From a virus (Duplodnaviria; Heunggongvirae; Uroviricota; Caudoviricetes): 64,000 nucleotides of DNA. The stretch is taken from IMG/VR virus record IMGVR_UViG_3300033233_000007; one strand, given 5' to 3'. The notes under the pieces are model-generated. The model ran no database searches and was not told the origin of the DNA. It worked only from the letters and a program-made list of their open reading frames with translations. The position numbers and the translations under genes are program-made. Every line of letters begins with the position of its first letter. Positions within the stretch are counted from its first letter, which is position 1. Of the stretch, positions 36,406-50,764 are shown one piece after another.

Positions 36406-36441
36406 GTGAGAATCTGTTTCTCAAAGAACGATCCGACTCCA

Positions 36442-36516
36442 TGGTGGCCCCGCTGGGACTCGCACCCAGGTCTCCTGCTTAAGAGGCAGGCCGTCTAGCT
36501 GCTGACATACGAGGCC
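36442..36516 (-). tRNA. tRNA-Lys(CUU)
   Basis: Anticodon arm CCUGC-CUCUUAA-GCAGG, T-arm CUGGG-UGCGAGU-CCCAG. CCA encoded. Confidence 0.65.
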
Positions 36517-36520
36517 GTCA

Positions 36521-36595
36521 TGGGGTCGGCGGGAATCGAACCCGCGTGAAGCTCGGTTAAAAGCCGAGTGCAAAGCCAGCGTTTGCTACGACCCC
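36521..36595 (-). tRNA. tRNA-Lys(UUU)
   Basis: Acceptor GGGGUCG/CGACCCC. Anticodon arm CUCGG-CUUUUAA-CCGAG, T-loop UUCGAUU. Confidence 0.6.
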
Positions 36596-36636
36596 TTGGA
36601 TTTGCCGTCGCGTTTCAAGCGACACCTCCTGAAAAA

Positions 36637-36710
36637 TGGCAGCCCGCCGCGGATTCGCACCGCGATCCTGACTTTGAAAAAGTCATATCCTGCTCTTAGA
36701 CGAGCGGGCC
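36637..36710 (-). tRNA. tRNA-Glu(UUC)
   Basis: Anticodon arm UGACU-UUUUCAA-AGUCA, T-arm CGCGG-UGCGAAU-CCGCG. CCA encoded. Confidence 0.6.
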
Positions 36711-36866
36711 ATCAGTGGGCGTAGCGGGGGAGCATCTTGCGCATACTCATCGGGAACCTGACCCTACTCTGGGCGGGTCTTTGCCAGCTAACCGCTTACC
36801 CTCGGGAGGCTTGGCCCGATCCCTTTGCGCCAGTGCTGGCAGCCCCCGCGCTTCGCCCACTAAAAT
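36711..36866 (-). ncRNA. about 150-nt structured non-tRNA element closed by long-range helices (GTGGGCG/CGCCCAC and GGGGG/CCCCC)
   Basis: No ORF and no cloverleaf could be built. Complementary termini at 36714-36735 and 36842-36862. Strand is assumed from the surrounding tRNAs. Confidence 0.3.
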
Positions 36867-36941
36867 TGGTACCCCGAAGGAGAGTCGAACTCCCGTTTTC
36901 GCCTTGAGAGGGCGGTGTCCTGGCCGCTAGACGACCGGGGC
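36867..36941 (-). tRNA. tRNA-Glu(CUC)
   Basis: Anticodon arm CCGCC-CUCUCAA-GGCGA, T-arm GGGAG-UUCGACU-CUCCU. CCA encoded. Confidence 0.6.
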
Positions 36942-36942
36942 A

Positions 36943-37017
36943 TGGAACCCACGGAGGGAATTGCACCCTCATGACCGATTTAGAGGATCGGCGTCCTGTC
37001 TGTTGAACGACGTGGGC
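36943..37017 (-). tRNA. tRNA-Arg(UCU) (C33 in the loop)
   Basis: Anticodon arm CCGAU-CCUCUAA-AUCGG, D-stem GUUC/GGAC. CCA encoded. Confidence 0.5.
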
Positions 37018-37018
37018 A

Positions 37019-37097
37019 TGGCTCCGGCGGCAGGAGTCGGACCTGCGACTGCCCGCTTAACAGGCGGGTACCTCAAACCGACAGAGGCATCACCGGA
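37019..37097 (-). tRNA. tRNA-Asn(GUU)
   Basis: Anticodon arm CCCGC-CUGUUAA-GCGGG, T-arm GCAGG-UCCGACU-CCUGC, with a long D-loop. Confidence 0.55.
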
Positions 37098-37098
37098 G

Positions 37099-37172
37099 TG
37101 GAGCCGCCGACCCGAATTGCACGGGCATCTGAACTTTACGAAAGTTCTGTTCTGCTGTTGAACTACAGCGGC
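37099..37172 (-). tRNA. tRNA-Thr(CGU)
   Basis: Anticodon arm GAACU-UUCGUAA-AGUUC, D-arm GUUCAACAGCAGAAC. CCA encoded. Confidence 0.6.
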
Positions 37173-37173
37173 A

Positions 37174-37250
37174 TGGAGGCCGCGGCGTGACTTCCACACG
37201 CTACATCCGCCTTTGCAGGGCGGCGCTTCGTATACTTTGGCTTCGCGGCC
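37174..37250 (-). tRNA. tRNA-Cys(GCA) (weak D-arm)
   Basis: Acceptor GGCCGCG/CGCGGCC. Anticodon arm CCGCC-CUGCAAA-GGCGG. Confidence 0.5.
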
Positions 37251-37271
37251 GTGAATCGGCAGATGGATGGA

Positions 37272-37363
37272 TGGCGGAAGGTGAGGGAGTTGCACCCCCG
37301 TCGCCCTTGCGAGGCGCACGGTTTAGCGGACCGTCCCGGCGAACTGTCATCCGGCTACCTTCC
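37272..37363 (-). tRNA. tRNA-Ser(GCU) (class II)
   Basis: Acceptor GGAAGGU/ACCUUCC. Anticodon arm ACGGU-CCGCUAA-ACCGU with an 18-nt variable arm. Confidence 0.6.
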
Positions 37364-37364
37364 G

Positions 37365-37450
37365 TGGGGGAGGGCAACGGAATTGCACCGTCACGCGAGA
37401 TGCGCGGTCCAGTTTTCGAGACTGGTTGGGCACTGCGCCCACTGCCCTCC
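37365..37450 (-). tRNA. tRNA-Ser(CGA) (class II)
   Basis: Anticodon arm CCAGU-CUCGAAA-ACUGG with a 16-nt variable arm. D-stem UGGG/CCCA. Confidence 0.6.
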
Positions 37451-37458
37451 GTGAAATT

Positions 37459-37532
37459 TGGTCCCGGCGGGTGGAGTCTCACCACCGTTTCATCTTCATG
37501 AGGGATGCGTCTTGATCTTAGACCACACCGGG
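37459..37532 (-). tRNA. tRNA-Met(CAU), elongator-type
   Basis: Anticodon loop CUCAUGA, T-arm GGUGG-UGAGACU-CCACC. CCA encoded. Confidence 0.55.
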
Positions 37533-37533
37533 A

Positions 37534-37608
37534 TGGAGCCGCCGGTCCGAGTTGCACGGACATGAACCTGTTTACAGGACAGGGGCCTTGCTGTTAGGCG
37601 ACGGCGGC
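37534..37608 (-). tRNA. tRNA-Thr(UGU)
   Basis: Acceptor GCCGCCG perfect. Anticodon arm CCUGU-CCUGUAA-ACAGG, T-arm GUCCG-UGCAACU-CGGAC. Confidence 0.6.
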
Positions 37609-37645
37609 AAAAAAAACGCCGGTGTTCTACTATTGAACTACACCG
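37609..37645 (-). terminator. truncated tRNA 5' half (acceptor + D-arm) forming a hairpin followed by T8; possible intrinsic terminator
   Basis: Minus strand reads CGGUGUAGUUCAAUAGUAGAACACCGGCG then UUUUUUUU. No anticodon arm, T-arm or 3' acceptor strand is present. Confidence 0.35.
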
Positions 37646-37766
37646 TGGAAAACGGTTGACCGGACTACGCGCGCTACGCCGGGTCGTTTTCTCGTGCGGA
37701 GGGTACTGCCCCCTCGTCTCCGGCTCTCACGGCGTCGTTTAATCCGACGCCATGAGAGAAGGAGAA

Positions 37767-37840
37767 TGGGGCCGCCAGCGGGTACTGCCCCCGCGCTTCG
37801 ATCTTACCAAGATCGCGGACTGCTTTTATCCTATGGCGGC
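37767..37840 (-). tRNA. tRNA-Thr(GGU) with atypical T-loop GGCAGUA
   Basis: Acceptor GCCGCCA/UGGCGGC. Anticodon arm CGAUC-UUGGUAA-GAUCG, T-arm GCGGG-GGCAGUA-CCCGC. CCA encoded. Confidence 0.4.
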
Positions 37841-37841
37841 A

Positions 37842-37916
37842 TGGTCCTCGCTGAGGGAATCGCACCCCCGTCCCGTGGGTGTAGGCCACGTGTTCTGGCT
37901 GCTGAACTAAGCGAGG
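37842..37916 (-). tRNA. tRNA-Val(UAC)
   Basis: Acceptor CCUCGCU perfect. Anticodon arm CGUGG-CCUACAC-CCACG, D-arm GUUCAGCAGCCAGAAC. Confidence 0.6.
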
Positions 37917-37917
37917 A

Positions 37918-37991
37918 TGGTCCTCGGCCGAGGAGTCGCGCCTCGGTTTCCAGCGTGTCATGCTGGCGTCCTCCTGTTGAACGAGCCGAGG
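37918..37991 (-). tRNA. tRNA-Val(GAC)
   Basis: Anticodon arm CCAGC-AUGACAC-GCUGG, T-arm CGAGG-CGCGACU-CCUCG. Confidence 0.6.
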
Positions 37992-37992
37992 A

Positions 37993-38070
37993 TGGTCGGG
38001 GTGACAGGGCTTGCACCTGCGGCCTCCAGCGCCCCACGCTGGCGCTCATCACTATCTGAGCTACACCCCG
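37993..38070 (-). tRNA. tRNA-Pro(GGG)
   Basis: Acceptor CGGGGUG perfect. D-arm GCUC...GAGC, anticodon arm CCAGC-GUGGGGC-GCUGG. Confidence 0.6.
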
Positions 38071-38071
38071 A

Positions 38072-38145
38072 TGGGGTGATCGCCCGGATTTGCACCGGGA
38101 CTGACAGGGCCACGGCCTGCCGTGCTTCTGTTACACCACGATCAC
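38072..38145 (-). tRNA. tRNA-His(GUG)
   Basis: Acceptor GUGAUCG perfect. Anticodon arm GCAGG-CCGUGGC-CCUGU, T-arm CCCGG-UGCAAAU-CCGGG. Confidence 0.5.
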
Positions 38146-38151
38146 GAAGAT

Positions 38152-38226
38152 TGGTCCGCCCGGTTGGAGTTGCACCAAACATCAGCCGCTTATCGGGCGG
38201 CCGTTCTACTGTTGAACTACGAGCGG
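38152..38226 (-). tRNA. tRNA-Ile(GAU)
   Basis: Anticodon arm GCCGC-CCGAUAA-GCGGC, D-arm GUUCAACAGUAGAAC. Confidence 0.55.
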
Positions 38227-38227
38227 A

Positions 38228-38301
38228 TGGACCGGCCAGCGGGTACTGCCCCCGCGCTTTCGCCTTGGCAAAGCGACAGACTTCTACTATCCGATGGCCG
38301 G
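38228..38301 (-). tRNA. tRNA-Gly(GCC) with atypical T-loop GGCAGUA
   Basis: Acceptor CCGGCCA/UGGCCGG. Anticodon arm UCGCU-UUGCCAA-GGCGA, T-arm GCGGG-GGCAGUA-CCCGC. Confidence 0.4.
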
Positions 38302-38302
38302 T

Positions 38303-38377
38303 TGGCTGGCCCGGAAGGATTCGCACCTTCACCGCGACGTTCAGAGCGTCGAATGCTGCGTGTTACACCACGAGCCA
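38303..38377 (-). tRNA. tRNA-Gln(CUG)
   Basis: Anticodon arm CGACG-CUCUGAA-CGUCG, T-arm GAAGG-UGCGAAU-CCUUC. Confidence 0.6.
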
Positions 38378-38378
38378 G

Positions 38379-38461
38379 TGGTGGGCGCGTACGGAATCGA
38401 ACCGCCTAGTCTTCGACAACGGGTTTACAACCCGCCTCCGATCCCACTCGGCAGCGCGCCC
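38379..38461 (-). tRNA. tRNA-Tyr(GUA) (class II)
   Basis: Acceptor GGGCGCG perfect. Anticodon arm GCGGG-UUGUAAA-CCCGU with a 12-nt variable arm. Confidence 0.55.
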
Positions 38462-39099
38462 TAGCGTGCTTTGTACGATCGATGCTTCTTTGAACGCTCG
38501 ACCATGCGCTCGACGTACCGGATCATTTTCCGCGGCGTGACGGCCGACGTGCGGTAGGCCCAGCGCCCTTCTGAAAGCGCCATGTGCCGCGTTGAGTGGT
38601 GCAGGTGGCAGACCCACTCGAGGTTCTTCGGCCTATTGTCGTCCTCGTTGCCGTTAATGTGATGGACCACAAGAAGGCTCGGGACTTTGATCTTGCAACT
38701 GACGCATCGGAGCTTTCGGCTGTTGTACTTGATCGCGCGGTTGCGAATGCTGGCGGTAGCCGCGCGCCCCTTGCCCCGGCCCCAGTTCCGCGGTCGCGCT
38801 ACGATGATGCCGCTGTCGAGCTTTTGCGCTTTGTGCCGGCACTCGCGGCTGCAGACGGGGGCGCCCTTGAGCGAATTTATGTAGCGCGGCGTGATTTCGA
38901 AGGGCTTGTCGCAGACCTCGCACCAGACGCGCATGCGCTTTCTGGAGAGTTTGTTACGGCATTCAAACGAACAGGCCTTTCGCTTCTTGTCGAACGCGGG
39001 GAAGACGAACTTTTCCTTACAGGCCCCGCAACGTCTCTCGACGCAGAGCCGCTTCTGGCCGTCGAAAGTCCGGGTCATGAACGGGCGCCGCCTGAGCAC
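38461..39099 (-). CDS. HNH endonuclease with N-terminal zinc fingers, inside the tRNA array
   Basis: HNH core VVHHINGNEDDNRPKNLEWVCHLHH, with multiple CxxC pairs. Confidence 0.65.
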   Translation of the reverse strand: MLRRRPFMTRTFDGQKRLCVERRCGACKEKFVFPAFDKKRKACSFECRNKLSRKRMRVWCEVCDKPFEITPRYINSLKGAPVCSRECRHKAQKLDSGIIVARPRNWGRGKGRAATASIRNRAIKYNSRKLRCVSCKIKVPSLLVVHHINGNEDDNRPKNLEWVCHLHHSTRHMALSEGRWAYRTSAVTPRKMIRYVERMVERSKKHRSYKAR

Positions 39100-39214
39100 G
39101 AGGGGATCGTACGCGGAAGTTAAGGGAAGTCAAGAGGATGGTGGACCCGCGGGGATGCGCGCCCCGATTTTCACGATGCCATCGTGATGTCCTCCTGGTT
39201 GGACGACGGGCCCA

Positions 39215-39288
39215 TGGTGGACGCGGAGGGAATCGCACCCTCATTTTCGCATTGCGAAAGCGACGGTCTCCTGTTGACCTACGCGCCC
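39215..39288 (-). tRNA. tRNA-Ala(CGC)
   Basis: Acceptor has the G3:U70 Ala identity pair. Anticodon loop UUCGCAA, T-arm GAGGG-UGCGAUU-CCCUC. Confidence 0.5.
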
Positions 39289-39289
39289 A

Positions 39290-39364
39290 TGGCCGGCGCG
39301 GCTGGTAACGCTCCAGCATCTCCTCCTCTTCAGGGAGGCGCTCAAACTTCTGAGCTACGCGCCG
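39290..39364 (-). tRNA. tRNA-Phe(GAA)
   Basis: Acceptor CGGCGCG perfect. D-arm GCUC...GAGC, anticodon arm CCUCC-CUGAAGA-GGAGG. Confidence 0.6.
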
Positions 39365-39372
39365 GTGAAAGA

Positions 39373-39446
39373 TGGTTCCGGGAGAAGGATTTACACCTTC
39401 GTCTTCTGATTCAAAGTCAGAAATCCTATTACTAGACGATCCCGGA
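39373..39446 (-). tRNA. tRNA-Gln(UUG)
   Basis: Anticodon arm UCUGA-CUUUGAA-UCAGA, T-arm GAAGG-UGUAAAU-CCUUC. Confidence 0.55.
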
Positions 39447-39447
39447 A

Positions 39448-39525
39448 TGGCGGGGATGACGAGAGTCGCACTCGCTAATTGCCGCCGTGACAGGGCGGTG
39501 GCTCCACTACTTTGCCCTCATCCCC
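39448..39525 (-). tRNA. tRNA-Asp(GUC)
   Basis: Acceptor GGGGAUG perfect. Anticodon arm CCGCC-CUGUCAC-GGCGG. Confidence 0.6.
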
Positions 39526-39720
39526 GTAGAGCAAAACGCGCCGGGTTGAGGATGTGAACACCGGCCTTGGGAACCTTGCCGCTATGTGCGGCCCTCCTCT
39601 AGTACCATCGGCCTAAGCCGACTTCCCGTTCGTTTCCGCGTTTTGCATGGCAGGCCAGCCTCGGTGCTGCCCCGAGCTTCCGGGTTTTGGAGACCCAGAT
39701 GGTCGCTGGACCGCGGCCTG

Positions 39721-39795
39721 TGGAAGCGGGAGGCCGAATTGCACGGCCTTGCGTGGCTTATGAGACCACGAGGATGACTTCACCCTCCTCCCGCA
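39721..39795 (-). tRNA. tRNA-Met(CAU) with a 1:72 mismatch (initiator-like)
   Basis: Anticodon loop CUCAUAA. T-arm GGCCG-UGCAAUU-CGGCC is perfect. U1/U72 are unpaired. Confidence 0.5.
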
Positions 39796-39871: not shown

Positions 39872-39967
39872 ACGAACTCCATCCATTCATCTGCCGATCC
39901 GTGTCGCTCCGCAAGGCCCTGGGCCCGGCGGTTCACGGCACGTTCTGCTTTTCAAAGAGTCGCGGGT

Positions 39968-39994
39968 AACAAAAAAGCCCTCGCAGGGAGGGCT
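39968..39994 (-). terminator. intrinsic terminator on the minus strand (GCCCUCCCUGCGAGGGC followed by UUUUUUG)
   Basis: Direct reading of the sequence. Confidence 0.65.
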
Positions 39995-40275
39995 TCGGAC
40001 TTCCGTATGTTCTTTGGACTACGGAGGTCCGTCGCCCTCTTGCCGCGTGGCCGCGGGCTGGCGATTCAGACTACCGAAAATCGACGTGGCCACGGGCCGC
40101 GGTAAGCGCCGATAGCGTGCCGCGAGTCGCTTCTGGCAATCTTCTCGCCTATGGTCGCGTGTTCTCATAGCCGTATCGCTTAGACCCGCATGGCTAATGC
40201 GAGTTCGTGAGAATTATAAAACAGGACCGCCCCGAAGCAAGAAAAATCCGCCATAAGGGCGTCGGTACGTTTTCC

Positions 40276-40304
40276 TTGACTTGGACGCACTACACGGGTA
40301 CACT
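40276..40304 (+). promoter_or_regulatory. sigma70-like promoter TTGACT-N17-TACACT
   Basis: Direct reading. It lies 8 nt upstream of the GTG at 40312. Confidence 0.5.
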
Positions 40305-40311
40305 ATGAGCC

Positions 40312-40452
40312 GTGAAGATCGTCCTCCCGACCTTGAAGTGCGTGCGCTGCGGCCACGCGTGGTATCCCCGTCGGCCTGAGACGCCGCCCCGTTGTGCCGG
40401 CTGCAAAAGCCCCTACTGGGACAGGCCGAGGCGCACGGGAGCGAAATCATGA
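40312..40452 (+). CDS. zinc-ribbon mini-protein (46 aa; CxxC...CxxC), paralog of 42921..43055
   Basis: Protein VKIVLPTLKCVRCGHAWYPRRPETPPRCAGCKSPYWDRPRR. Its stop overlaps the next ATG (ATGA). Confidence 0.5.
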   Translation: MKIVLPTLKCVRCGHAWYPRRPETPPRCAGCKSPYWDRPRRTGAKS

Positions 40453-41087
40453 GACCCGGTCCGTACAGGCGGTCAATGACGTCGATACGGATGAGCCATC
40501 ACAGTTTTGTGAAGGAGCCTGTTTTCATGAGAAATCCTGATGACCCGCTGGACTATCCGAGCCTCCGTGACCTGATCGCAGCCGCGCAACTGGCCTCCCG
40601 CATCGGAGAGGATCATGACGTGGACTCGGCGCTGGTCGGCGGCGTTGCGCTTCAACTATACGGCTCTCCTCGGTTTACTCGAGATGCGGACCTCGTGGCC
40701 GGTGCGGCGCTGGGCGACCCGTCGCCAATGCTGAAGCGTAACATCTTGAGTTTTGGCGGAGTCGCCTACGACACGCCGATCGGAGTCGGCGTCGACTGGA
40801 TCACTCGATCCGACGAGTACGCGCAATTGTACGACGCCGTGCTTGACGCTTCCGTGTCGACGAAGCATGGAATCAAGATCGCGCGGCCGGAGTATCTTGT
40901 CGCGATGAAGATGGCTGCGTCGCGGCCAAAGGATTATGAGGACCTCATGTGGCTTTTGGGCGCTCCCGGACTCGTGGACGTGACGAAGGCGCGGGAGATC
41001 GTGCGCGCGTTTCTCGGTGGGCGGTACGCCGTCGATCAGTTCAACGCCTCTCTTGAAGAAGCGAAATGGCGGGCCGGAAAAACGTGA
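40449..41087 (+). CDS. nucleotidyltransferase (MNT/AbiEii-like)
   Basis: Motif VGGVALQLYGSPRFTRDADLV of the GG(x)A...R.T.DxD type. Translationally coupled to the zinc-ribbon ORF. Confidence 0.65.
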   Translation: MRPGPYRRSMTSIRMSHHSFVKEPVFMRNPDDPLDYPSLRDLIAAAQLASRIGEDHDVDSALVGGVALQLYGSPRFTRDADLVAGAALGDPSPMLKRNILSFGGVAYDTPIGVGVDWITRSDEYAQLYDAVLDASVSTKHGIKIARPEYLVAMKMAASRPKDYEDLMWLLGAPGLVDVTKAREIVRAFLGGRYAVDQFNASLEEAKWRAGKT

Positions 41088-41354
41088 GTCCGCTTGACAG
41101 CACGGTCCGCCCGTGTAGAATCCTCTCGTTCTTTTACGTTCTGTATCGAGTGCGAAAGGAAGCGCCTTCGGGCTTCGTGCCGCAGGCGCCGAGCTTTCGA
41201 ACTCCAGACCTTGCCCTTGGGCCGCGAGGCCGCGGGCGAAGAAAACGCCGGCATTCGGCGACGGTGTTGTGATCGATCCGGGAAGCCTTCGTTGTAACCG
41301 GCACGGCTTCCGCATCCCGCAACTTCGGACGCCAAAAGGAATTCGGAGGACAGG

Positions 41355-42827
41355 ATGCCTTCATCCATTTCCCTCTCTGCGCTTCTCGAATACGACAAAG
41401 TCGCTTTCGACAAGACGCACGTCACGCACATGCTCGTGAATCTCGAGGGCGCCAAGCATGCCGCGTCGAATCGTAAGCCCCTCGCTATTTCGGTCTCTAT
41501 CGACTGCTCCAGCAGCATGGCCGGCCAGAAGATCGACTACGCGAAGCTCTCGCTCCAGAAACTCATCGAGCATCTGACGGCCGAGGACACGCTATCGATC
41601 GTCGGCTTCTCGAACTCCGTCTGGACGGTTCTTGCGCCCACGCGCATGGCGTCCGACGCCAAGGATTCGGCTAAGGCCAAGGTCCAGGGGCTTCGCTACC
41701 TGAGTTCGACCAACCTCTCCGGCGCGACCGTCGAGGCGTACGGCCATCTGCGGTCGGGCCGCGAAATCGCGGTCAAGGACGCGCTGGCTCGGGCCTTCCT
41801 CTTCACCGACGGCCTTCCGACGTCGGGGGAGACCCATCATGATCGGCTCATCGAGATCGCCGGCACGAAGCCCGAGGGCGCCGGCCTCACGGCCTTCGGC
41901 TACGGGACGGACCACGATCCCGAGCTTTTGCTGTCCATGGCCAAAAAAGGCGGAGGCAACTTCTACTTCGTCAAGACCCCCGACGAATGCCCGAGCTTCT
42001 TCGGCCGCGAACTGGGCGGTCTGCTCTCGTGTGTCGCCCAGGGCGTGAAGGTCAAGATCAAGGCCGCCGCCGGCGTCAAAATTCTCGAAGTCCTCAACGA
42101 CTTCGACGTGGACGCCAACAAAGAGCAGACCGAAGCGACGATCACCGTCGACGACGTCTACTCGGAGGAGACGCGGCGCGTGCTCGTGAAGCTCGAGCTT
42201 CCCAAGGTCTCCAAAGCCGTGGCTGCTCGGCCTTCGAAGGTTTGCGACGTCGAGATCGAGTTCCACGACCTGCGGATCAACGAGCCGAAGTCCGAGTCCG
42301 TCAAAGTCAAGATCGAGTACGTCAAGTCCGGCAACGAGCAGGCCAAGCCCCACAAGGAGGTCGAAGAGCAGATCGCGCTCCTTGTGGCCGCCAAGGCCCA
42401 TGAGGAGGCCCGCAAATTCGCCGACGCGGGTAACTTCGCCGGCGCCCAGAGCGTGCTTCGGAGCGCGGCGCTCGTCTGCAGTGCCGTCGGCACGCCCTTG
42501 ACCAAGGCTGTCGAGCACGAGATCAAAACGGGCGGGCTCATCATGGTCCAAGACGCCCAGGCCTACGCCCATGGCGGCGTGCAGTACGTCGTTGGAACGG
42601 CCGGGGGCTACAAAGCCGGTCGCGGTTACACGTCCGGCTCCGCTCAGCTTTTCGACACGGAGCGGCAGAGCGCGACAGCCGCGTCGTTCGGCGGTAGTAC
42701 CGTGCCGGCTGATCCGGCGCACATGCTCGGTCAGCCGATCGTGCATCCCGCACCGGTTGCCGTGCCGCCGAAGTTCAGCGCCGCCCTGCCGAAGGGGCCG
42801 AGTAAGCGCCGAAAGAACAGGCGCTAG
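41355..42827 (+). CDS. von Willebrand factor A (vWA) domain protein
   Basis: MIDAS motif ISVSIDCSSSM (DxSxS), then ...SIVGFSNS...FLFTDG. GGAGGACAGG RBS. Confidence 0.75.
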   Translation: MPSSISLSALLEYDKVAFDKTHVTHMLVNLEGAKHAASNRKPLAISVSIDCSSSMAGQKIDYAKLSLQKLIEHLTAEDTLSIVGFSNSVWTVLAPTRMASDAKDSAKAKVQGLRYLSSTNLSGATVEAYGHLRSGREIAVKDALARAFLFTDGLPTSGETHHDRLIEIAGTKPEGAGLTAFGYGTDHDPELLLSMAKKGGGNFYFVKTPDECPSFFGRELGGLLSCVAQGVKVKIKAAAGVKILEVLNDFDVDANKEQTEATITVDDVYSEETRRVLVKLELPKVSKAVAARPSKVCDVEIEFHDLRINEPKSESVKVKIEYVKSGNEQAKPHKEVEEQIALLVAAKAHEEARKFADAGNFAGAQSVLRSAALVCSAVGTPLTKAVEHEIKTGGLIMVQDAQAYAHGGVQYVVGTAGGYKAGRGYTSGSAQLFDTERQSATAASFGGSTVPADPAHMLGQPIVHPAPVAVPPKFSAALPKGPSKRRKNRR

Positions 42828-42849
42828 GGACAAGGGTACATAAAGCCCG

Positions 42850-42880
42850 AGGGGCCGGATCGCTCCGGGCCCTCTCTATT
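42850..42880 (+). terminator. possible terminator hairpin GGGCCGGATCGCTCCGGGCCC followed by a T-rich tract
   Basis: Direct reading, after the vWA gene. Confidence 0.4.
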
Positions 42881-42884
42881 ATGC

Positions 42885-42913
42885 TTGACGGCGCATCTGT
42901 GTGATGATACAGT
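42885..42913 (+). promoter_or_regulatory. sigma70-like promoter TTGACG-N17-TACAGT
   Basis: Direct reading. It lies 7 nt upstream of the GTG at 42921. Confidence 0.5.
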
Positions 42914-42920
42914 ATATCGC

Positions 42921-43055
42921 GTGAAGATTGAAATAACGAAGCTGACGTGCCTGCGGTGCAAGCACGAGTGGCATCCGCGAAAGCTGGCCGTCCCTGTGCG
43001 CTGCGGGAAGTGCGGGAGCCCGTACTGGAACAGACCGAGGATCAAAAGGCGATGA
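42921..43055 (+). CDS. zinc-ribbon mini-protein (44 aa), paralog of 40312..40452
   Basis: Protein VKIEITKLTCLRCKHEWHPRKLAVPVRCGKCGSPYWNRPRIKRR. ATGA overlap with the next gene. Confidence 0.5.
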   Translation: MKIEITKLTCLRCKHEWHPRKLAVPVRCGKCGSPYWNRPRIKRR

Positions 43056-43516
43056 AACGCAAGATCAGACGCGACAGCGAGATCATTTCCATGATGGCCG
43101 ATGAAGTCGTCAGTCTGCTTCGTGCGGCGCTGTTGGCTTCGAAAATCGAAGACCGCCGATGGCTTCGCTCCGTTCTTCAAGACCTTTCCGATGCGCAGGA
43201 CGACTTATCGGAAGCCGCAAGGCGCTGGTCGCGTGGCATACCTATTGTAAGAAATCCTATCGACGCTCCAGAGTCTCCCGGCGAGTTCATCTCCGTCGCC
43301 AAGGACCTTGTGAAGGTGGCGGAAATCTATAAAGATCAGCATGAGATTTTCCGCAGAAGAGTCGGCCAGAAAGAAGCTGACATCTGGCTTCGTAAGTGGA
43401 AGAAGGCCGAACACGCGGCCCGTGACGCCGTTTTGACGGCTTATCGTGAGCACGTGTCGCACGGATGGCATTGGCCGTCTCGGCTGGATACGACTTTCGC
43501 GGCTTATCTGCGGTAG
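43052..43516 (+). CDS. hypothetical helical protein (154 aa) with a C-terminal Rx4H (HEPN-like) motif
   Basis: ORF coupled to the zinc-ribbon gene. REHVSH near the C-terminus. Confidence 0.4.
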   Translation: MKRKIRRDSEIISMMADEVVSLLRAALLASKIEDRRWLRSVLQDLSDAQDDLSEAARRWSRGIPIVRNPIDAPESPGEFISVAKDLVKVAEIYKDQHEIFRRRVGQKEADIWLRKWKKAEHAARDAVLTAYREHVSHGWHWPSRLDTTFAAYLR

Positions 43517-43588
43517 CTGTTTTTGCGATGAGTCATGAACTGATAACCTGGCCACGAAAATTTTCAGAATCTCGCCCGCGAACGCAGA

Positions 43589-43606
43589 TGGCCTGACTAC
43601 TATAGT
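43589..43606 (+). promoter_or_regulatory. phage-type promoter motif GGCCTGACTACTATAG
   Basis: Same motif as at 7921 and 63728. It lies 21 nt upstream of the ATG at 43627. Confidence 0.5.
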
Positions 43607-43626
43607 AAGGTAGGACGATCCGCACC

Positions 43627-44772
43627 ATGCCCGACATCAGCCCCCACATCACGGTCAACAAGGACGACGTTCATAGCTTCGTCATCGATTCGATCCTGCT
43701 TGAGAATGTACGCACGGAAAAGCTCGTCTTCGCTGCGCACTGGAACGCGTCCATGAAAAACGGCGGCGACAAATTCCATCAAGCGTGTGAAATTGCGCGC
43801 AAGATCGGAACTCCGCGTTTCGTCGGGACGCACGGCAATTACGCGGACGGGCTCGTCCTGCGCGACCAGTCCGTCGTGAAGCTCTGGATCGGAAAGAAGC
43901 TCGACGTTGAAGTTTGGGCCAAGACGCAGGAAGATGCTACGAAAGAGGTACAGGCAATCCGAAAGATTGTCGAGCCCTATCTCATCACCCCTGAAAACGA
44001 GTCCGGGATCAGCGTGACCTTCTGGAACTCGAACACGAAGGGAGATGTCAAGCAGAACGAGCGCATCATCGCGTGTCCTTCATGGCAGGAAATCCGCGAG
44101 AACTACGGCTCTTCCGTCCAACCGGACATCGAGTCTCTGGTGGCAATGAAAAAGCCGTGGGAGGCCGGGAAGATCATTTTCTGGTCTGGGCCGCCGGGCA
44201 GCGGGAAAACTTTTGGAATTCGTTCTCTAATTCGTGAGTGGCACGGCGTTGTTGAACCGAACTACATCATGGACCCGGAGACGTTCTTCAGCGACGCGCA
44301 GTATATGAGCGAGGCCGTGATGACGACGAGCAATAAGTTTGACGAGGATGGGGATAGCAAGCCGTCGACGGCCGGCAAACTCTTCATCATCGAGGACATG
44401 CCCGATCTCATCCTGACGAAAACTCGCCTGACCCGTTGCGCCGAAATGGCCCGACTCCTGAACCTCTCCGACGGCTTTATCGGCCAGGGTTTTAACGCCA
44501 TCTTCCTCCTGACGACGAACGAGGACGTCCACGACGTCGACCCTGCGTTTCTCCGCGATGGCCGCATCCTTCAGCAGACAGCGTTCACGAAGTTCAACAT
44601 GTCGGCAGCGAAGGCGTGGCTCGGCAATCGCGGGATCGCCGCTGACCGCGCCGACGCCGCCATCTGCGGAGAGATGACGCTGGCCGAGCTTTACGCGGTG
44701 CTGCGGGGCAAGAGGCCCAAGTCCCATGTGAAAGACCGCAAGGTCGGCTTTGCCGTGGAGAAATCGTCATGA
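43627..44772 (+). CDS. AAA+ ATPase
   Basis: Walker A GPPGSGKT, Walker B LFIIEDMPD and sensor LLTTNE. Confidence 0.75.
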   Translation: MPDISPHITVNKDDVHSFVIDSILLENVRTEKLVFAAHWNASMKNGGDKFHQACEIARKIGTPRFVGTHGNYADGLVLRDQSVVKLWIGKKLDVEVWAKTQEDATKEVQAIRKIVEPYLITPENESGISVTFWNSNTKGDVKQNERIIACPSWQEIRENYGSSVQPDIESLVAMKKPWEAGKIIFWSGPPGSGKTFGIRSLIREWHGVVEPNYIMDPETFFSDAQYMSEAVMTTSNKFDEDGDSKPSTAGKLFIIEDMPDLILTKTRLTRCAEMARLLNLSDGFIGQGFNAIFLLTTNEDVHDVDPAFLRDGRILQQTAFTKFNMSAAKAWLGNRGIAADRADAAICGEMTLAELYAVLRGKRPKSHVKDRKVGFAVEKSS

Positions 44773-44782
44773 ACCGCTTGGA

Positions 44783-45916
44783 CTAAAGCCCCGCGGCTTG
44801 TTTCTGAACATGAGGACTCGAAACCATAGGCTCCATGACGAGAGCCCTCTCCGGGCAGGCTTGCCTCCTGGAGATCGTCTGCGCGGCATTGAAGTCCGCG
44901 GCCAGACGATAGCCGCAGACGGCGCACGTAAAGTGCGCCCCGCTTCGAGAAGATTTGTCCACGACGCCACACTTCGAGCACTCACGGCTCGTGTTCTTGG
45001 CGGCCACGGACACGACTTCGACACCGGCCAAAGCCGCCTTGTAACGGATCATCGTCTCAAGCTCGGAAAAGGCCCATGCGTTGATCCTCCGATTCCACGT
45101 CTTGCTGAACCGCTTGAGGCGATCCCGAATGCCCTTGAGGTCCTCCAGTTTGATGACGGCCCTCTTTTTAGTCGCCTCGTCAACGATGGCCTTGCTGATC
45201 CGATGGTTCTCGTTCCGCATCCAACGATGCTCCCTTCCCGACAGCCGTTTCAAGAGGCGCCTAGCGCTTCTTGTGCCTATGGACTGGAGCTTCGCCCTGC
45301 GGGACGCGAACCTCTCACGGACGTGCATGACCTTTCGACCGGAATGGAATTTCCCCGCGGACGTGACGGCAATGTTATAGACGCCCCTATCGACGCCGAT
45401 GGCGCAGATGGGATGCGACCGCTGGCCTGGATCGTCTTCGACGACGATATGGATGTACCACTTGCGATCTCCATAGACAAGCTTGGCGGCGGTGGGTCTC
45501 TTCCCGCGAAGATTGTCGCGCTGGTACGTTCCGAGGACGAGAGGAACGTGGACGCGGCCGTTGACCGTCGTCAGGGATACCGCCTCTTCGTTCTCACGGT
45601 AGGTGAAGATTCGCTCATCGTAATCGACGCTCGTGGGCCTGAACTTCTTGACGGTCCTGTCCTTGCGTTTCACGGCTTTGATCGCCCATGCGACGCGGGC
45701 GATGGCGCGAATGGCGAGATTAGCGGAAAGGTTGAACTGTTTGCGGATATCGTGGTAGACGAGGTGCTGAAGTTTGACCTTGTTCGAAGTTTTCTCACGG
45801 ACAGCGACCTCAAGGATGACGTCGCACGCGGCGGCAAACTTCGTGAGCGTGTCCTTGAGGGCGTCGGAGACAGTGGGGGCGGGGTCCATTTTGCAGATGA
45901 TTGTTCGCTGTTGCAT
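44783..45916 (-). CDS. tnpB: TnpB (IS1341/IS605-family OrfB), second copy, distinct from 29696..30898
   Basis: N-terminal MQQRTIICKMDPAPT and a C-terminal CSKCG...CAVCGYRLAADFNAAQTI. Confidence 0.75.
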   Translation of the reverse strand: MQQRTIICKMDPAPTVSDALKDTLTKFAAACDVILEVAVREKTSNKVKLQHLVYHDIRKQFNLSANLAIRAIARVAWAIKAVKRKDRTVKKFRPTSVDYDERIFTYRENEEAVSLTTVNGRVHVPLVLGTYQRDNLRGKRPTAAKLVYGDRKWYIHIVVEDDPGQRSHPICAIGVDRGVYNIAVTSAGKFHSGRKVMHVRERFASRRAKLQSIGTRSARRLLKRLSGREHRWMRNENHRISKAIVDEATKKRAVIKLEDLKGIRDRLKRFSKTWNRRINAWAFSELETMIRYKAALAGVEVVSVAAKNTSRECSKCGVVDKSSRSGAHFTCAVCGYRLAADFNAAQTISRRQACPERALVMEPMVSSPHVQKQAAGL

Positions 45917-46243
45917 GACGAATATAATATCACATACGTCTTGAATGTCAAGGAGGGCGACGCTTCTTCCGTTCGGGCTGAAGCCCGGCGGCATCCGCGT
46001 CGCAAGAATTGGTGAAGTTTGTCAGACTCGTTCTGAGCCCATGGGGCGTCGAACTGGCGGGCGCTCTGTGCCTTCTGGCCGCGGGCTTCGAATTCATGGG
46101 ATCGTGGGCTTCGCCAGATCAGTTCACCCGCGCTATGAACTTGGCGGGCTATGGATCGATGCTAATTCTGACCGCATACGTTGAGCGGGACCTGCTCAAA
46201 GGTGTAAACTCCCGTTCGTGCGAAACCGAAAAAGGAGAGGCAT

Positions 46244-47221: not shown

Positions 47222-49915
47222 GTGGAGGTCGTAACCTTGAAAAGAAACGTACAAGCGACCGCCGAACTCATGATGGGCCGTGAAGCCGACAGCGGCCGTA
47301 CGTTCGCGCTGCCCGTGGATGCACTCGTGCAGACGTTCGCGTTCATGGGCATCCGCGGCTCGGGCAAGTGCGTGGAAGCTTCGGAAAAGATTTTGTTGTC
47401 CGATGGTAGAGTCGAACCTGCTCATACTTTGATCGGCCGAACTTTCTCAATCTTGGGCATTGGGGATAAAGGTGAGTTCGTACCGAGGATTGCACACGCT
47501 GCGGACAATGGCATGCGCGGCACTTATCTCGTCAGAACAAGAAGCGGGAGGGAGATTCTTAGGACGGCTGAACATCCCCTCTGGGCGGCGGAAGTTGTCA
47601 CCGAATATACTCGACCAAAGATAAAGAAGGTTGGATGGGTTGCGGTACAGAACTTGGTCGCCTGCGGATGGGGCGAGTCAAGAGATCGAAAGATGGTCCA
47701 TGCCGTTGCTGTTCCCACCTCTATTCCGATCAATGGGAATCGTCCTCGCAATGATGATGAAGTGAAGCTGGCGGCTTACTTGGTAGGAGACGGGGGCACG
47801 ACTTGCTCTGTCAGTTTTACGCATCTTCCGGGACCCGCGCTGGATGAGTTTGTGGAAATTGCGCATCGTCTTGGCGGAAAGGTTCATTGCTCCAAGTCCG
47901 CGTCAAAAGCAGTACAGCTTAGAGTCTCTGGAGCTTCGAATCTGGATGGCAGAGGGAGCAAGGGATCGAATCCAGTTCTTGAGCTTGTCAAGTCATGGGG
48001 ATTGTTTGGGGTTAAGTCCAAGCACAAGTCATTCCCGAGTTGGGTGTGGGAGTTGCCGGATCGCCAAATTGCCTTATTCTTGAACCGTCTGCTGTCTTGT
48101 GACGGGTGGGCGTTAACGACTACGCATGGCAGGTCGGATATTGGCATCTGTTCTGCATCCTATGCTTTGATCCGGGATGTTGAACTGGCCATGCTCAGAC
48201 TTGGCATTCCGGGATCGATTAACCGCAAGACCGTTAAAGGGGTGTGGAAGACGACTCCTGGTGACTACATCGCCTATACGTGGAATATTGGGAGTCGAGA
48301 GGCTCTTGCGACATTTGTCGCAAGAGTTGGAATCTTTGGCAAGGAACAACAAGTTGCGAAAGCCGTACCTCATAACGGCGGCGCTGGATGGAAGCGGACA
48401 TGGACAGCCGTTGATGACATGCCTGGAATGCGATGGGATTTCGTTGAAAGGGTCCAGTGCATTGGTGAACGCCCGACTGTTTCGATTTCTGTGCCTGGAG
48501 ATGAGCGTTTCGTAACAACCTTTCTTGAGCACAACACCACGGCCGTCGCCGTTCTTGCCGAGGAGTTCTCCAAAGCCGGTCTGCCGTGGATCATGCTCGA
48601 TCCTGTCGGCGTCGGCTGGGGCCTCCGTGCGGGCAAAGACGGAAAGTCCGGCGGCGGTTTCCCCGTCGTCGTCTTCGGCGGCTCGCACGGCGATCTGCCG
48701 CTCGACAAAGACGGTGGTCGGAAGGTTGCCGAGGCTCTGATCGAATCGAATGTCTGCGCCGTCATCGACCTGTCCAAAGAGAGCAAGAAAACGTGGCGCC
48801 GCTTCCTCACCGATTTTTGTCTCGCACTTATGGACCTGAACCCGCAGACTCCGCGGCACCTCTTTATAGAGGAAGCGGCTGAGTTTATTCCGCAACGAAC
48901 AAAGGTCGCCGTGACGGCCGAGTGCAAGGAAGCCGTGGAGCGGCTCGTGCGGCTTGGCCGAAATCAAGGCTACGGCTGCTCGATCATCACGCAGCGGCCG
49001 GCGACGGTCGACAAAGATGTACTTTCACAATGCGAAAATTTGGTCGTTATGCGTACGGTCGGCAAGCACGACCGTAGGGCTCTCATGGACTGGCTGGAAC
49101 CGAAGTTTTCGGAGCAGGGGCTTGACGAAAAGGGCGTCAGGGCCGAAGGCACGAAACTCGTCAATACCCTCGCGGCCTTCGACAGCGGGGTCGCGTACTT
49201 CTGGAGCCCGCATTGGCTGAAGCAGTTCAAGAAAGTCAGGATTCGCGACCGGGCGACGTTCCATCCGGGGCAGACACGGTCCGTCGGGAAGTCCATCGGC
49301 CCCGTGGCACTCTCTGACGTTACTGAGTTCGTGGAAAGGGTCCGTCGCCAGCTTTCGGCTTCGAAGCCGGCGAGCGTTCCGCAGAGCTATACCCCGAGAA
49401 AAATCGAATCGCTTAAGAAGGAAATCAAGTCTATCGAGACCTCGAGTGGCTCCGCCATCGTGCTCGATCCCGTCACGTCACGTCAAGCTGCTGAGGCTAT
49501 CCGAGACGTCGCCCGAGAGGCCGACGAACTTCGTCAGCGCGTTGGCGAGCTTCAGAAGCAGATCGCCGAGGAGAAGGCCCGTCGTGCCGACGCCGAGAAC
49601 CGTCTGGCCGCGGTCCGCAAGTTCATGGAACCGCAGTACGAGACGATGAAGAAGCTGTTCGAGAAGCTCGGGACTCCGGGCAGTAACGGCGCTGCCGACT
49701 CGTCGGTCTACGCGCCGTGGCTCGAAAAGGCCGGCAAGCGCGGCTCGAAGCGGCTTTTGGAGATCATGATCGCCCGCGGCGAAGTGACGCGCACGCAGCT
49801 TGCGACGCTCGCGGGCATCGCGCAGTCGGGTACGTTCCGAAACTATCTCAGTTGGCTCAAGAGCAACGGCCTCGTGGAGGTTCAGGGCGAGCAGGTTCGC
49901 CTTCGTCCCATTTAG
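47222..49915 (+). CDS. HerA/FtsK-like P-loop ATPase (possible DNA-translocating/packaging ATPase) carrying an intein; C-terminal coiled coil and winged helix
   Basis: Extein Walker A GIRGSGK|TT is reconstituted after intein removal. Walker B LFIEEAAE and HerA-like IITQRP. Confidence 0.7.
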   Translation: MEVVTLKRNVQATAELMMGREADSGRTFALPVDALVQTFAFMGIRGSGKCVEASEKILLSDGRVEPAHTLIGRTFSILGIGDKGEFVPRIAHAADNGMRGTYLVRTRSGREILRTAEHPLWAAEVVTEYTRPKIKKVGWVAVQNLVACGWGESRDRKMVHAVAVPTSIPINGNRPRNDDEVKLAAYLVGDGGTTCSVSFTHLPGPALDEFVEIAHRLGGKVHCSKSASKAVQLRVSGASNLDGRGSKGSNPVLELVKSWGLFGVKSKHKSFPSWVWELPDRQIALFLNRLLSCDGWALTTTHGRSDIGICSASYALIRDVELAMLRLGIPGSINRKTVKGVWKTTPGDYIAYTWNIGSREALATFVARVGIFGKEQQVAKAVPHNGGAGWKRTWTAVDDMPGMRWDFVERVQCIGERPTVSISVPGDERFVTTFLEHNTTAVAVLAEEFSKAGLPWIMLDPVGVGWGLRAGKDGKSGGGFPVVVFGGSHGDLPLDKDGGRKVAEALIESNVCAVIDLSKESKKTWRRFLTDFCLALMDLNPQTPRHLFIEEAAEFIPQRTKVAVTAECKEAVERLVRLGRNQGYGCSIITQRPATVDKDVLSQCENLVVMRTVGKHDRRALMDWLEPKFSEQGLDEKGVRAEGTKLVNTLAAFDSGVAYFWSPHWLKQFKKVRIRDRATFHPGQTRSVGKSIGPVALSDVTEFVERVRRQLSASKPASVPQSYTPRKIESLKKEIKSIETSSGSAIVLDPVTSRQAAEAIRDVAREADELRQRVGELQKQIAEEKARRADAENRLAAVRKFMEPQYETMKKLFEKLGTPGSNGAADSSVYAPWLEKAGKRGSKRLLEIMIARGEVTRTQLATLAGIAQSGTFRNYLSWLKSNGLVEVQGEQVRLRPI
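47369..48535 (+). other. intein (389 aa) with a LAGLIDADG homing endonuclease domain, inserted in the P-loop
   Basis: Starts at Cys after GSGK (CVEASEKILLSDG). LAGLIDADG-like blocks LAAYLVGDGG and LFLNRLLSCDGW. Ends FVTTFLEHN, followed by Thr. Confidence 0.7.
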
Positions 49916-49942
49916 GTCGGGCTCTACTTTTTGGAGAGGCAC

Positions 49943-50764
49943 ATGAAGAAGTCCGTATTTTTCGCTGTCGCCGGTCTCATCGTCTTGGTACTCATCCTCA
50001 TCGTCAGCTTCGCCAGTTGCACGACCGTGCCGGCGGGCCACGTCGGCGTTGTGACGAACTTCGGCGACGTGCAAGGGACTGTCCTGCCCGCGGGCCTGCA
50101 TGTCGTCGCGTTCTGGAAGCACGTCCAGACGCTGTCGATCAGGACTCAGGAAAAGAGCGAGACGGCCGACGTCCCGACGAAAGAGGGGCTGACCGTCCAT
50201 CTCGACGCGACGCTCCTTTTTGCGCTCAAGGCCGACAAGGCGGCGGAAATCTACCGCACCGTCGGCGAGAACTACATCGACGTCGTCGTGACGCCGCAGT
50301 TCCGGTCGGCCATGCGCGGCATCACGGTCGATTATCAGGCGCAGGACCTTTACACGGCCAATCGCGCCGAGATCGAGCAGAAGCTGCAGACGATGGTTCA
50401 CGACATGCTCGAACCCCGCGGCATCATCTGCGAAAAGGTGCTGCTGCGGTCGGTTGTGCTACCGGACCTCGTCAAGACGGCGATTGAGCAGAAGCTTGCT
50501 GCGGACCAGGACGCGCAGCGCATGGAGTACGTCGTCAAGCGCGAGGAACAGGAAGCCAAGCGCCGGGCCGTCGAAGCCGGAGGCATCGCCGCCGCGCAGA
50601 AGATCATCCAGGCGACGCTTGACGATAACTACCTGCGGTACCTGTGGCTCGAGGCGCTGAAGGTCGCGGCGGCGAACCCGTCGACCGTGATCTACGTTCC
50701 CACGGACAGTAGCGGCTTCCCCATGTTCATGCCGCTTGAGGGGAAGAGGGAGCCGAAGAAATGA
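49943..50764 (+). CDS. SPFH/band-7 (prohibitin/HflC-like) membrane protein
   Basis: N-terminal TM segment, then the SPFH segment PAGHVGVVTNFGDVQ.... Confidence 0.7.
   Translation: MKKSVFFAVAGLIVLVLILIVSFASCTTVPAGHVGVVTNFGDVQGTVLPAGLHVVAFWKHVQTLSIRTQEKSETADVPTKEGLTVHLDATLLFALKADKAAEIYRTVGENYIDVVVTPQFRSAMRGITVDYQAQDLYTANRAEIEQKLQTMVHDMLEPRGIICEKVLLRSVVLPDLVKTAIEQKLAADQDAQRMEYVVKREEQEAKRRAVEAGGIAAAQKIIQATLDDNYLRYLWLEALKVAAANPSTVIYVPTDSSGFPMFMPLEGKREPKK

Follow-up and report, generated by a model that had tools for sequence, protein, structure and literature searches.

MoxR-vWA pairs and the ternary vWA-MoxR-VMAP conflict systems place a vWA gene close to a gene for an AAA+ ATPase. The same proximity is seen between positions 40,276 and 45,994 of a 64,000-nt stretch of DNA (the window; GC ~60%) from a large phage of the Caudoviricetes (IMG/VR record IMGVR_UViG_3300033233_000007; contig ~126 kb), where an initial annotation had proposed a cassette for defence, superinfection exclusion or anti-defence. 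The locus differs from the MoxR-vWA systems in that its ATPase is a classical-clade DUF5925 protein, the linkage is not conserved, and no VMAP-like effector is present. In our view the interval probably combines, as a mosaic, five units that are each transcribed on their own in a plastic region of a large-phage genome, and is not a single defence or anti-defence cassette. The initial annotation was largely correct in what it observed, and its interpretation as a defence island is mostly not supported. The region is of interest for an uncatalogued family of leader RNA, a phage-borne MenT1-like enzyme, and a family of zinc-ribbon cassettes.

Other described systems resemble single parts of the locus. 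The vWA protein shares with ArnB/ArnE of Sulfolobus, with the protein 4fx5 and with the Sec23/24 core a tripartite architecture that includes a MIDAS (an adhesion site dependent on a metal ion); for ArnB this fold, which consists of vWA domain, beta-sandwich and helical domain, has been described (PMC12852372). The window protein is only ~16% identical to this group in sequence, is encoded by a phage, and has a conserved structured leader RNA and a long disordered basic tail. The leader is like 5' leaders that sequester the Shine-Dalgarno sequence (SD), among them the pseudoknotted preQ1 and SAM-II riboswitches and phage translational operators. It lies in the 5' untranslated region (UTR) of a single gene family and has several helices and a pseudoknot, conserved junctions, and a closing helix that includes the SD. 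It differs from them in having no Rfam family, in being tied solely to a phage vWA gene, and in having a second, possibly related version in distant relatives.

MenT1 transfers CMP onto tRNA 3' ends; an antitoxin of 68 aa, whose gene lies upstream, neutralises it (PMC10435456). The nucleotidyltransferase (NTase) in the window resembles MenT1/AbiEii toxins with small antitoxins (MenAT1): the catalytic motifs align, the sizes are 186 and 196 aa, and a small open reading frame (ORF) lies immediately upstream. This ORF encodes a 46-aa zinc ribbon (Zn1) with no detectable similarity to the MenA1 or AbiEi families (Pfam, NCBIfam, PADLOC), and the NTase is phage-encoded beside the phage's own tRNA array, not host-encoded. 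Zn1 and its paralog Zn2 can in turn be compared with the controller (C) proteins of restriction-modification operons. As in those operons, a small protein comes first in a short, apparently leaderless (by prediction) cassette and overlaps the gene of a potentially toxic enzyme acting on DNA or RNA, and the zinc-ribbon family precedes DNA methyltransferases in archaeal genomes. The fold is a zinc ribbon, in contrast to the helix-turn-helix of C proteins, and the role is assigned by analogy.

Composition of the interval and synteny

The five units are Zn1 with the NTase, the vWA gene with its leader RNA, Zn2 with a 154-aa ORFan, the gene for the AAA ATPase, and a TnpB element (Table 1). They are separately flanked by promoters and terminator-like hairpins, and a close relative of the window phage keeps the AAA gene without the vWA gene, so a single island is not what we find. 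This relative (locus L442) is a 10.8-kb contig that bears a 68%-identical AAA homolog and has 72-93% nucleotide identity to the window. It aligns through its positions 13-405 with window 39873-40252 (93% identity) and then lacks the window sequence from 40253 to ~42745, which holds Zn1, the NTase, the leader and most of the vWA gene. A remnant of the vWA 3' end is present (window ~42746-42808, 63 nt by blastn and up to ~95 nt in a wider alignment), followed by a conserved hairpin. L442 also lacks ~42880-43551 (Zn2 and the ORFan) and resumes at 43552 in the promoter region of the AAA gene. The AAA gene is retained, its stop runs directly into the next ORF where the window has the TnpB element (44773-46032), and synteny continues through the large terminase (TerL) and Band_7.

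Because L442 keeps the vWA remnant, the difference is a deletion in that contig and not a gain in the window; the vWA gene, perhaps together with Zn1 and the NTase, was deleted in the L442 lineage. By the same alignment the Zn2-ORFan cassette is an indel, the TnpB element an insertion, and the AAA gene a backbone gene. Part of the block is thus dispensable and variable, as had been suggested, and the whole does not come and go as one unit.

The pairing of vWA with AAA+ that had been proposed does not stand, because L442 keeps the AAA gene where the vWA gene is deleted and the two are not linked in the 52 vWA loci searched by tblastn with every window ORF. In these 52 loci no Zn-ribbon, NTase, ORFan or TnpB homolog was found nearby. 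Weak AAA matches (25-27% identity) occur within 4-5 kb of the vWA gene in 3 of them, with no orthologous DUF5925-AAA gene adjoining. AAA matches are found in at least 221 stretches of IMG/VR; on four huge-phage contigs with both a vWA and an AAA match the two are ~130-235 kb apart (derived by comparing the contig ranges of the two scans), and the matches are weak and may not be orthologs. The clade of the ATPase also counts against the pair. We note that adjacency of vWA and AAA genes does not make a defence pair without evidence from synteny.

Elsewhere the vWA gene has other neighbours. Among 44 non-redundant loci (by clustering), an HNH endonuclease lies directly upstream in 29; downstream there is, in 12 loci, the RNA ligase RtcB or, in 16 loci, a 3'-5' exoribonuclease of the Rv2179c-like type, and further downstream a 128-aa protein with GroEL (27 loci) and clamp-loader subunits. 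The only one of these conserved neighbours in the window is an HNH homolog (34283-34882, minus strand), on the strand opposite to the vWA gene and beyond the tRNA array. This 199-aa endonuclease has homologs in ~29-32 vWA loci, in most of which it lies 250-1000 nt upstream of vWA with the same orientation (L017-L050; e.g. L026 9226-9807).

The AAA ATPase has the predicted size of 381 aa and the predicted Walker A motif (GPPGSGKT); Walker B (E256/D257) and arginines R310 and R313 are invariant. It matches phrog_33861 (4e-42) and is related to Myrna gp262. In INPHARED it has relatives in Myrna-like, Mx1 and jumbo phages, and the Myrna-like mycobacteriophage ATPases are 33-38% identical to it. 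The Myrna and Mx1 records, the two that were inspected, have no vWA gene annotated beside the AAA homolog. The family comprises more than 1000 representative clusters at E<1e-30, and 33 of 38 sampled members have the same architecture. A MoxR identity (AAA_3/AAA_5) is ruled out by the Pfam matches, which are to DUF5925 and PF00004 only, and by the best PDB matches, the D1 domains of p97/Cdc48, which are its nearest solved relatives. A literature search on DUF5925 found nothing. We infer that the protein acts independently of its neighbours, as a stand-alone and probably hexameric remodeller.

The TnpB gene marks the right end of the interval, as annotated (NCBIfam guided_TnpB, 6.7e-51; Pfam OrfB_IS605 and Cas12f1-like_TNB), and is convergent with the AAA gene. 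The element is of the IS200-IS605 type and forms a 1.26 kb insertion relative to L442. The TnpB stop codon (44757-44783 region) lies 10 nt from the element end and from the AAA stop, so any omega-RNA must overlap the 3' coding part of tnpB, with a guide antisense to the 3' end of the AAA gene. A first TnpB gene in the window (29681-30898) is only 25% identical to this one.

The sigma70 promoters reported earlier are present as three sigma70-like sites, upstream of Zn1, vWA and Zn2. The promoter scan gave 5 sigma70-like sites where 2.0 were expected. The motif 5' of the AAA gene had been called a phage-type promoter; it is a conserved motif, present in L442 and once in the window, and its phage-type nature was not confirmed. 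The hairpin 3' of the vWA gene is a likely terminator because it is conserved in L442 and there has a T-run after it; in the window the T-tract is weak, and the terminator scan did not pick up this copy.

Table 1. Features of the interval, with window coordinates
Feature	Position	Strand	Remarks
sigma70-like promoter, Zn1 cassette	40276-40304	+	TTGACT-17-TACACT; promoter scan
Zn1, 46-aa zinc ribbon	40312-40452	+	GTG start; motifs C-x2-C-G-H-x-W-x-P-R and C-x2-C-K-S-P-Y-W-x-R-P-R
NTase, MenT1/AbiEii-like minimal, 186 aa	40527-41087	+	Pfam AbiEii; source gene call
Promoter, vWA unit	41094-41121	+	TTGACA-16-TAGAAT; 11/12 consensus matches; aligns with TTGACA-type promoters of L003 and L006
Structured 5' leader RNA (type A)	41155-41354	+	~200 nt, pseudoknotted, directly upstream of vWA ATG
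Leader P1	41203-41208 with 41342-41347	+	Closing helix
Leader P2	41209-41216 with 41234-41241	+	
Leader P2a	41220-41223 with 41228-41231	+	GCGA tetraloop
Leader pseudoknot	41247-41251 with 41298-41302	+	Post-P2 junction with P5 loop
Leader P3	41257-41265 with 41324-41333	+	
Leader P4	41268-41277 with 41314-41319	+	
Leader P5	41281-41287 with 41305-41311	+	
vWA protein, ArnB/Sec23-24-core-like, 490 aa	41355-42827	+	Pfam VWA (PF00092) E=2e-13
Hairpin 3' of vWA	42845-42880	+	Conserved in L442 alignment; likely terminator
Promoter, Zn2 cassette	42885-42913	+	TTGACG-17-TACAGT; 7 nt ahead of GTG start
Zn2, 44-aa Zn1 paralog	42921-43055	+	GTG start
ORFan, 154-aa helical protein	43052-43516	+	ATGA overlap with Zn2; four-helix bundle
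Terminator-like hairpin and T-run, end of Zn2 cassette	43497-43523	+	Scan
Motif 5' of AAA gene	43594-43615	+	Single in window; conserved in L442
DUF5925 + classical AAA ATPase, 381 aa	43627-44772	+	Pfam DUF5925 8.5e-9, AAA (PF00004) 8.6e-7
TnpB element	44773-46032	-	Coding sequence 44783-45994; inserted between AAA stop and next ORF start relative to L442

The vWA gene and its leader RNA

The vWA unit would have its own promoter, giving a 230-nt leader up to the start codon, and, in a large group of huge phages, is likely to be ancestral. The sequences 5' of vWA genes align with nucleotide conservation and compensatory changes. RNAalifold on six sequences gives 41 pairs, 16 of them with compensatory changes, and a covariance model built from these six (R1) scores 137-191 bits directly 5' of the vWA ATG at all 10 near-clade loci, including four independent test loci that lie outside model building (L440, L441, L443, and L444). 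R1 finds a single copy in the window, and 25 other phage loci have no match. Across the 10 sequences, standard pairs fill 96% of the pair cells (32-46% in slid controls) and 20 of the 41 pairs are compensatory (4-7 in slid controls), values attained by 0 of 500 shuffles. All 10 sequences allow the pseudoknot (5-8 bp), in which two positions have G-C replaced by A-U (L008, L010, L441), and the junction nucleotides are highly conserved. The leader is not coding, because its indels are not multiples of three. A comparison with Rfam 15 (4227 families) gave no match in 41128-41354 at E<=1, and tRNAs are the only features in the window that reach Rfam gathering thresholds. The leader is an uncatalogued RNA family, and the vWA gene that follows it is conserved among very large phages.

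As in riboswitch-like cis-regulatory RNAs, a conserved and covarying 5' UTR structure is combined with an expression platform. The 3' strand of P1 (CGUGGA) overlaps the vWA SD (GGAGG, 41345-41349), taking in its first bases. Since P1 pairs with the SD, folding of the leader should gate vWA translation, which would occur by SD sequestration in response to an effector. Such tight RNA-based control would imply some form of sensing by the phage through which the vWA protein is timed or dosed. We found nothing in the literature on riboswitch candidates linked to vWA. A loose RNA pattern scan of viral and metagenome collections gave chance matches only among the matches listed, and a stricter scan recovered just three known IMG/VR loci, plus false positives.

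R1 does not detect this leader (type A) at the distant vWA loci, which bear a different conserved leader (type B) of ~150 nt ending at the vWA start (L017-L050; e.g. L029 9860-10003, L035 9856-9999). A sequence-only hidden Markov model (nhmmer) finds type B at 31 distant-clade loci, where it ends 0-63 nt before the vWA match (one partial match at 156 nt), and nowhere else in the 4.6 Mb of collected locus sequence. The type B hairpins covary, and by reading of the alignments its GGAC/GUCC pseudoknot is changed to GGGC/GCCC in L043 and L044. The two types share the short strings GCCGCA, GGCGAAG, and GUCG(C)GGACG and may be related.

The type A leader has two further sequence features. A 21-nt inverted repeat (95% complementary) joins 41162-41182 in the leader with 41861-41881 in the vWA coding sequence, 678 nt downstream. 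The string CCGCA occurs three times, at columns 26-30, 83-87, and 168-172 of the A10 alignment (~41180-41184, 41230-41234, and 41310-41314). Copies 1 and 3 change together: both are CUACA in L441, and they are CUACA and UCACA in L444, which hints at a shared partner or binding protein.

The vWA protein was correctly recognized as a 490-aa protein with a MIDAS motif of the form DxSxS, and the MIDAS residues (D50-x-S52-x-S54, T119, and D152) are invariant in 37 homologs. Its AlphaFold model (pLDDT 90.7) comprises a vWA domain and a beta-sandwich, then a helical domain and, at the C terminus, a disordered basic tail. Foldseek ranks ArnB (8s05), a Catenulispora vWA protein (4fx5), and an ArnB paralog (5a8j) at the top, followed by Sec23/24; the top matches have E-values of 1e-22 to 5e-18 and TM up to 0.75. 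The architecture is thus that of ArnB and the Sec23/24 core. An ArnAB module was not found, as the interval has no match to an FHA, kinase, or phosphatase and the flanking zinc ribbons are not conserved beside vWA in relatives. More than 120 full-length homologs were found (26-57% identity). An alignment-based scan located 47 loci in IMG/VR, most on contigs of 100-500 kb, where a single-protein scan gave nothing, and tblastn against INPHARED phages gave no match. We predict that the protein is an ArnB-like, MIDAS-dependent scaffold that should bind a partner through this site. The unit is dispensable, as one close relative has deleted the vWA gene. Large phages carry many conserved genes that lack an assigned role, and this one, for an ArnB/Sec23-24-like protein, has its own deeply conserved, pseudoknotted leader outside Rfam. 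The leader offers an experimental handle on a gene family found in dozens of phage genomes of 100-500 kb.

Zinc-ribbon cassettes and their cargo

Zn1 and Zn2 are 50% identical and are the sole two zinc-ribbon paralogs in the window, where a search for more found none. Zn2 lies between the vWA and AAA genes, as had been noted for the second zinc-ribbon module. Each stop codon overlaps, as ATGA, a start codon that is in frame with the following ORF. Their promoters have identical layout and spacing; the Zn1 -10 box ends 7 nt 5' of the GTG, so the Zn1 transcript is predicted to be probably leaderless. A search of the window for repeats of both promoter types found none outside the two cassettes, except one similar promoter before the first TnpB gene. 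That promoter (29661-29691, CTTGAC...TACACTGT) directly precedes the TnpB gene at 29681-30898.

Against Pfam, Zn1 and Zn2 give generic zinc-ribbon matches only, all of them sub-threshold. A search with the Zn1/Zn2 alignment recovered 46 IMG/VR loci and seven genome loci, the latter mostly from methanogenic archaea (L055-L107), with the family signature KCLRCGHEW.PR...C..CKSPYW..PR. The small ORF is typically followed by unrelated cargo, often with a 4-nt or 1-nt overlap. By sequence reading and BLAST clustering, the cargo includes HNH endonucleases (~13 loci), DNA methyltransferases (5 loci, notably in methanogens), TnpB (L072), a terS-like gene, and others, some of them unknowns. By analogy we propose that Zn1 and Zn2 may be controllers or antidotes of toxic-enzyme cargo. 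The cassettes point to a portable module that would regulate nucleases, methyltransferases, and TnpB or serve as their antidote.

The NTase belongs to the AbiEii/MenT (DUF1814) family, and the NTase-like module proposed for the interval is borne out in this respect. It scores 31-32 bits against Pfam AbiEii (cut-off 22.5), and its family profile finds the MenT1 structure 8an4 with E=4.9e-9. The alignment covers GS..R.T.D.D, the T-x-D-x-D catalytic segment, and DUF1814 motif IV (K..A..R.KD..DL), so that the Pol-beta NTase motifs I-III are joined by motif IV. The start at 40527 is preceded by a GAAGGAG ribosome-binding site; a second possible start in the same frame, at 40449, shares the sequence ATGA with the Zn1 stop. 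The small upstream ORF with this overlap, a candidate for the antitoxin of an AbiE/MenAT system, matches no antitoxin family. Just seven homologs were found, all on phage-like contigs. Zn1 and the NTase would form a bicistronic cassette, probably leaderless, in which the catalytic core of the NTase appears intact by sequence. By analogy with MenT1, the enzyme most likely adds nucleotides at tRNA 3' ends, and Zn1 would be its controller or antidote. A phage that encodes a MenT1-type enzyme beside its own array of 30 tRNAs reverses the usual picture of a host toxin.

The Zn2 cassette appears to follow the same design with unrelated cargo. The 154-aa protein encoded at 43052-43516 has no family match (Pfam, NCBIfam, PADLOC, and PHROG-type searches) and zero homologs. 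Its proposed HEPN identity is not supported, and we describe it as an ORFan four-helix bundle.

Competing explanations and flanking DNA

Several points weigh against the reading as five separate units and against parts of the mechanism proposed for them. L442 is the sole close relative for synteny, and the promoters, leaderless starts and SD occlusion are predictions. The leader alignment consists of 10 sequences fitted to the model, thus favouring structure, and the window leader alone is not significantly stable (fold z = -1.83 against shuffles), so the support for its structure is covariation, not energy. The NTase homologs have no conserved partner gene, which makes the toxin/antidote reading of Zn1 and the NTase an analogy only. 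In addition, the vWA gene with its RNA is clustered with a tRNA-type NTase and the tRNA array, and the three could share a function. If the parts did work together as a module centred on RNA or tRNA, the vWA protein would serve as scaffold (like the vWA-containing Ro60 with Y RNA), the leader its cognate RNA, and the NTase an enzyme of tRNA 3' ends, serving repair or manipulation of the tRNA pool beside the 30-tRNA array; the conserved RNA would then be a vWA partner instead of, or besides, a translational leader. We regard this as unlikely but keep it as a minority reading. It is true that the nearest solved relative of the NTase is a tRNA acceptor-stem NTase (PMC10435456) and that RNA-repair systems with scaffold proteins and cognate non-coding RNAs have been described in jumbo phages (PMC7824862). 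The NTase is ~1 kb from the tRNA array, distant vWA genes are directly followed by RtcB or the exoribonuclease, and in L444 a gene for an RNA ligase lies 2 kb upstream of vWA. Genes for Band_7 and RlaP, both said to act in RNA repair, lie downstream of TerL in L442. However, the vWA protein has no TROVE domain (Pfam, Foldseek), the RNA is at the exact position of a leader with P1 over the SD, none of the 52 other vWA loci has this NTase (tblastn), and the window has no RtcB, GroEL, or exoribonuclease. Synteny conserved among related phages also need not imply joint function.

A coherent cassette for defence, superinfection exclusion or anti-defence, with vWA and AAA+ as a MoxR-vWA-like sensor/chaperone pair and the NTase and a HEPN protein as effectors, is very improbable, and synteny has already largely refuted it. 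In its favour, the window genes stand next to each other, most of the block is absent in the close relative L442, and MoxR-vWA pairs and TerF vWA proteins are known in jumbo phages (PMC7824862). The NTase does fall in an abortive-infection/toxin family (AbiEii/MenT1), by Pfam and, weakly, by PADLOC 2.0 (2e-4), so the suggested likeness to defence genes holds for this gene. It does not extend further: PADLOC 2.0 gave nothing for vWA, Zn1, or the ORFan, only marginal matches for AAA (E=0.0016 and 0.015), a weak match between Zn2 and a Cas12f model in its zinc-ribbon region (9.1e-5), and Cas12f-type matches for TnpB, and it identified no known anti-phage defence system. The ATPase is not MoxR, its linkage to vWA is absent in the 52 loci, it is kept where vWA is deleted, and the HEPN effector is unsupported. 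The least probable proposal is that Zn1, Zn2, or both are ArnA-like partners that complete a Sec23/24-like core with the ArnB-like vWA protein. Its appeal is that the vWA fold is nearest to ArnB of the ArnAB complex (Foldseek), that ArnA contacts ArnB through a small zinc-ribbon domain (PMC12852372), and that zinc-ribbon genes stand on both sides of vWA in the window. Yet no zinc-ribbon homolog occurs near vWA in the 52 related loci, the same family precedes unrelated cargo (HNH, methyltransferases, TnpB) in more than 50 loci where no vWA was seen, and L442 lacks Zn1 and Zn2 alike, independently of its vWA remnant. We retain the reading as a mosaic of separate units. The analysis establishes the gene families and folds, the structure of the leader RNA and its exclusive association with vWA, the indel pattern relative to L442, and the lack of conserved linkage among the units.

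A wider reading of these parts is possible, although we consider it less likely than not. The leader, with the related type B, would be a new class of ligand- or protein-responsive regulatory RNA of very large phages that controls an ArnB-like vWA scaffold; this RNA and the vWA protein would form a system with the tRNA array and the MenT1-like NTase (and, in relatives, RtcB or the exoribonuclease) for manipulating or repairing the tRNA pool. Separately, the zinc-ribbon mini-genes would be a new family of portable controllers or antidotes that accompany toxic enzymes acting on nucleic acids, both in phages and in methanogenic archaea.

The interval was described as bounded on its left by a tRNA array, and the array is present (ARAGORN, Rfam), though ~750 nt of non-coding DNA separate it from the first cassette. 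It has at least 30 genes on the minus strand at 34919-39525, 28 found by ARAGORN and two, at 39142-39213 and 39451-39525 (both minus strand), by Rfam only. Nucleotide and protein searches of the INPHARED collection found no close relative of the window phage. The final ~380 nt of the gap (39873-40252) are 93% identical to L442, more than the flanking genes. On the minus strand, this stretch may encode a small RNA of ~220 nt between a TATAAT-like box (~40212-40217) and an intrinsic terminator (39996-39974); 39873-40252 has no Rfam match and a fold z-score of -2.5. Between the array and this stretch lies an 86-nt element (39648-39732) that is 85% identical to L006/L007 13325-13408; the L006 copy is inverted and 3.3 kb downstream of vWA.

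To the right of the interval, the large terminase, a HerA/FtsK-like ATPase (47222-49915), contains an intein with a LAGLIDADG domain (roughly residues 50-440), and its 421-aa ortholog in L442 is intein-free. A Band_7/SPFH protein follows TerL (window 49931-50764) and is 92% identical between the window phage and L442. Near and downstream of TerL, L442 has genes for Band_7 and for an RlaP-family NTase (4743-5564 and 6630-7334 of that contig), both of which are reportedly RNA-repair components.

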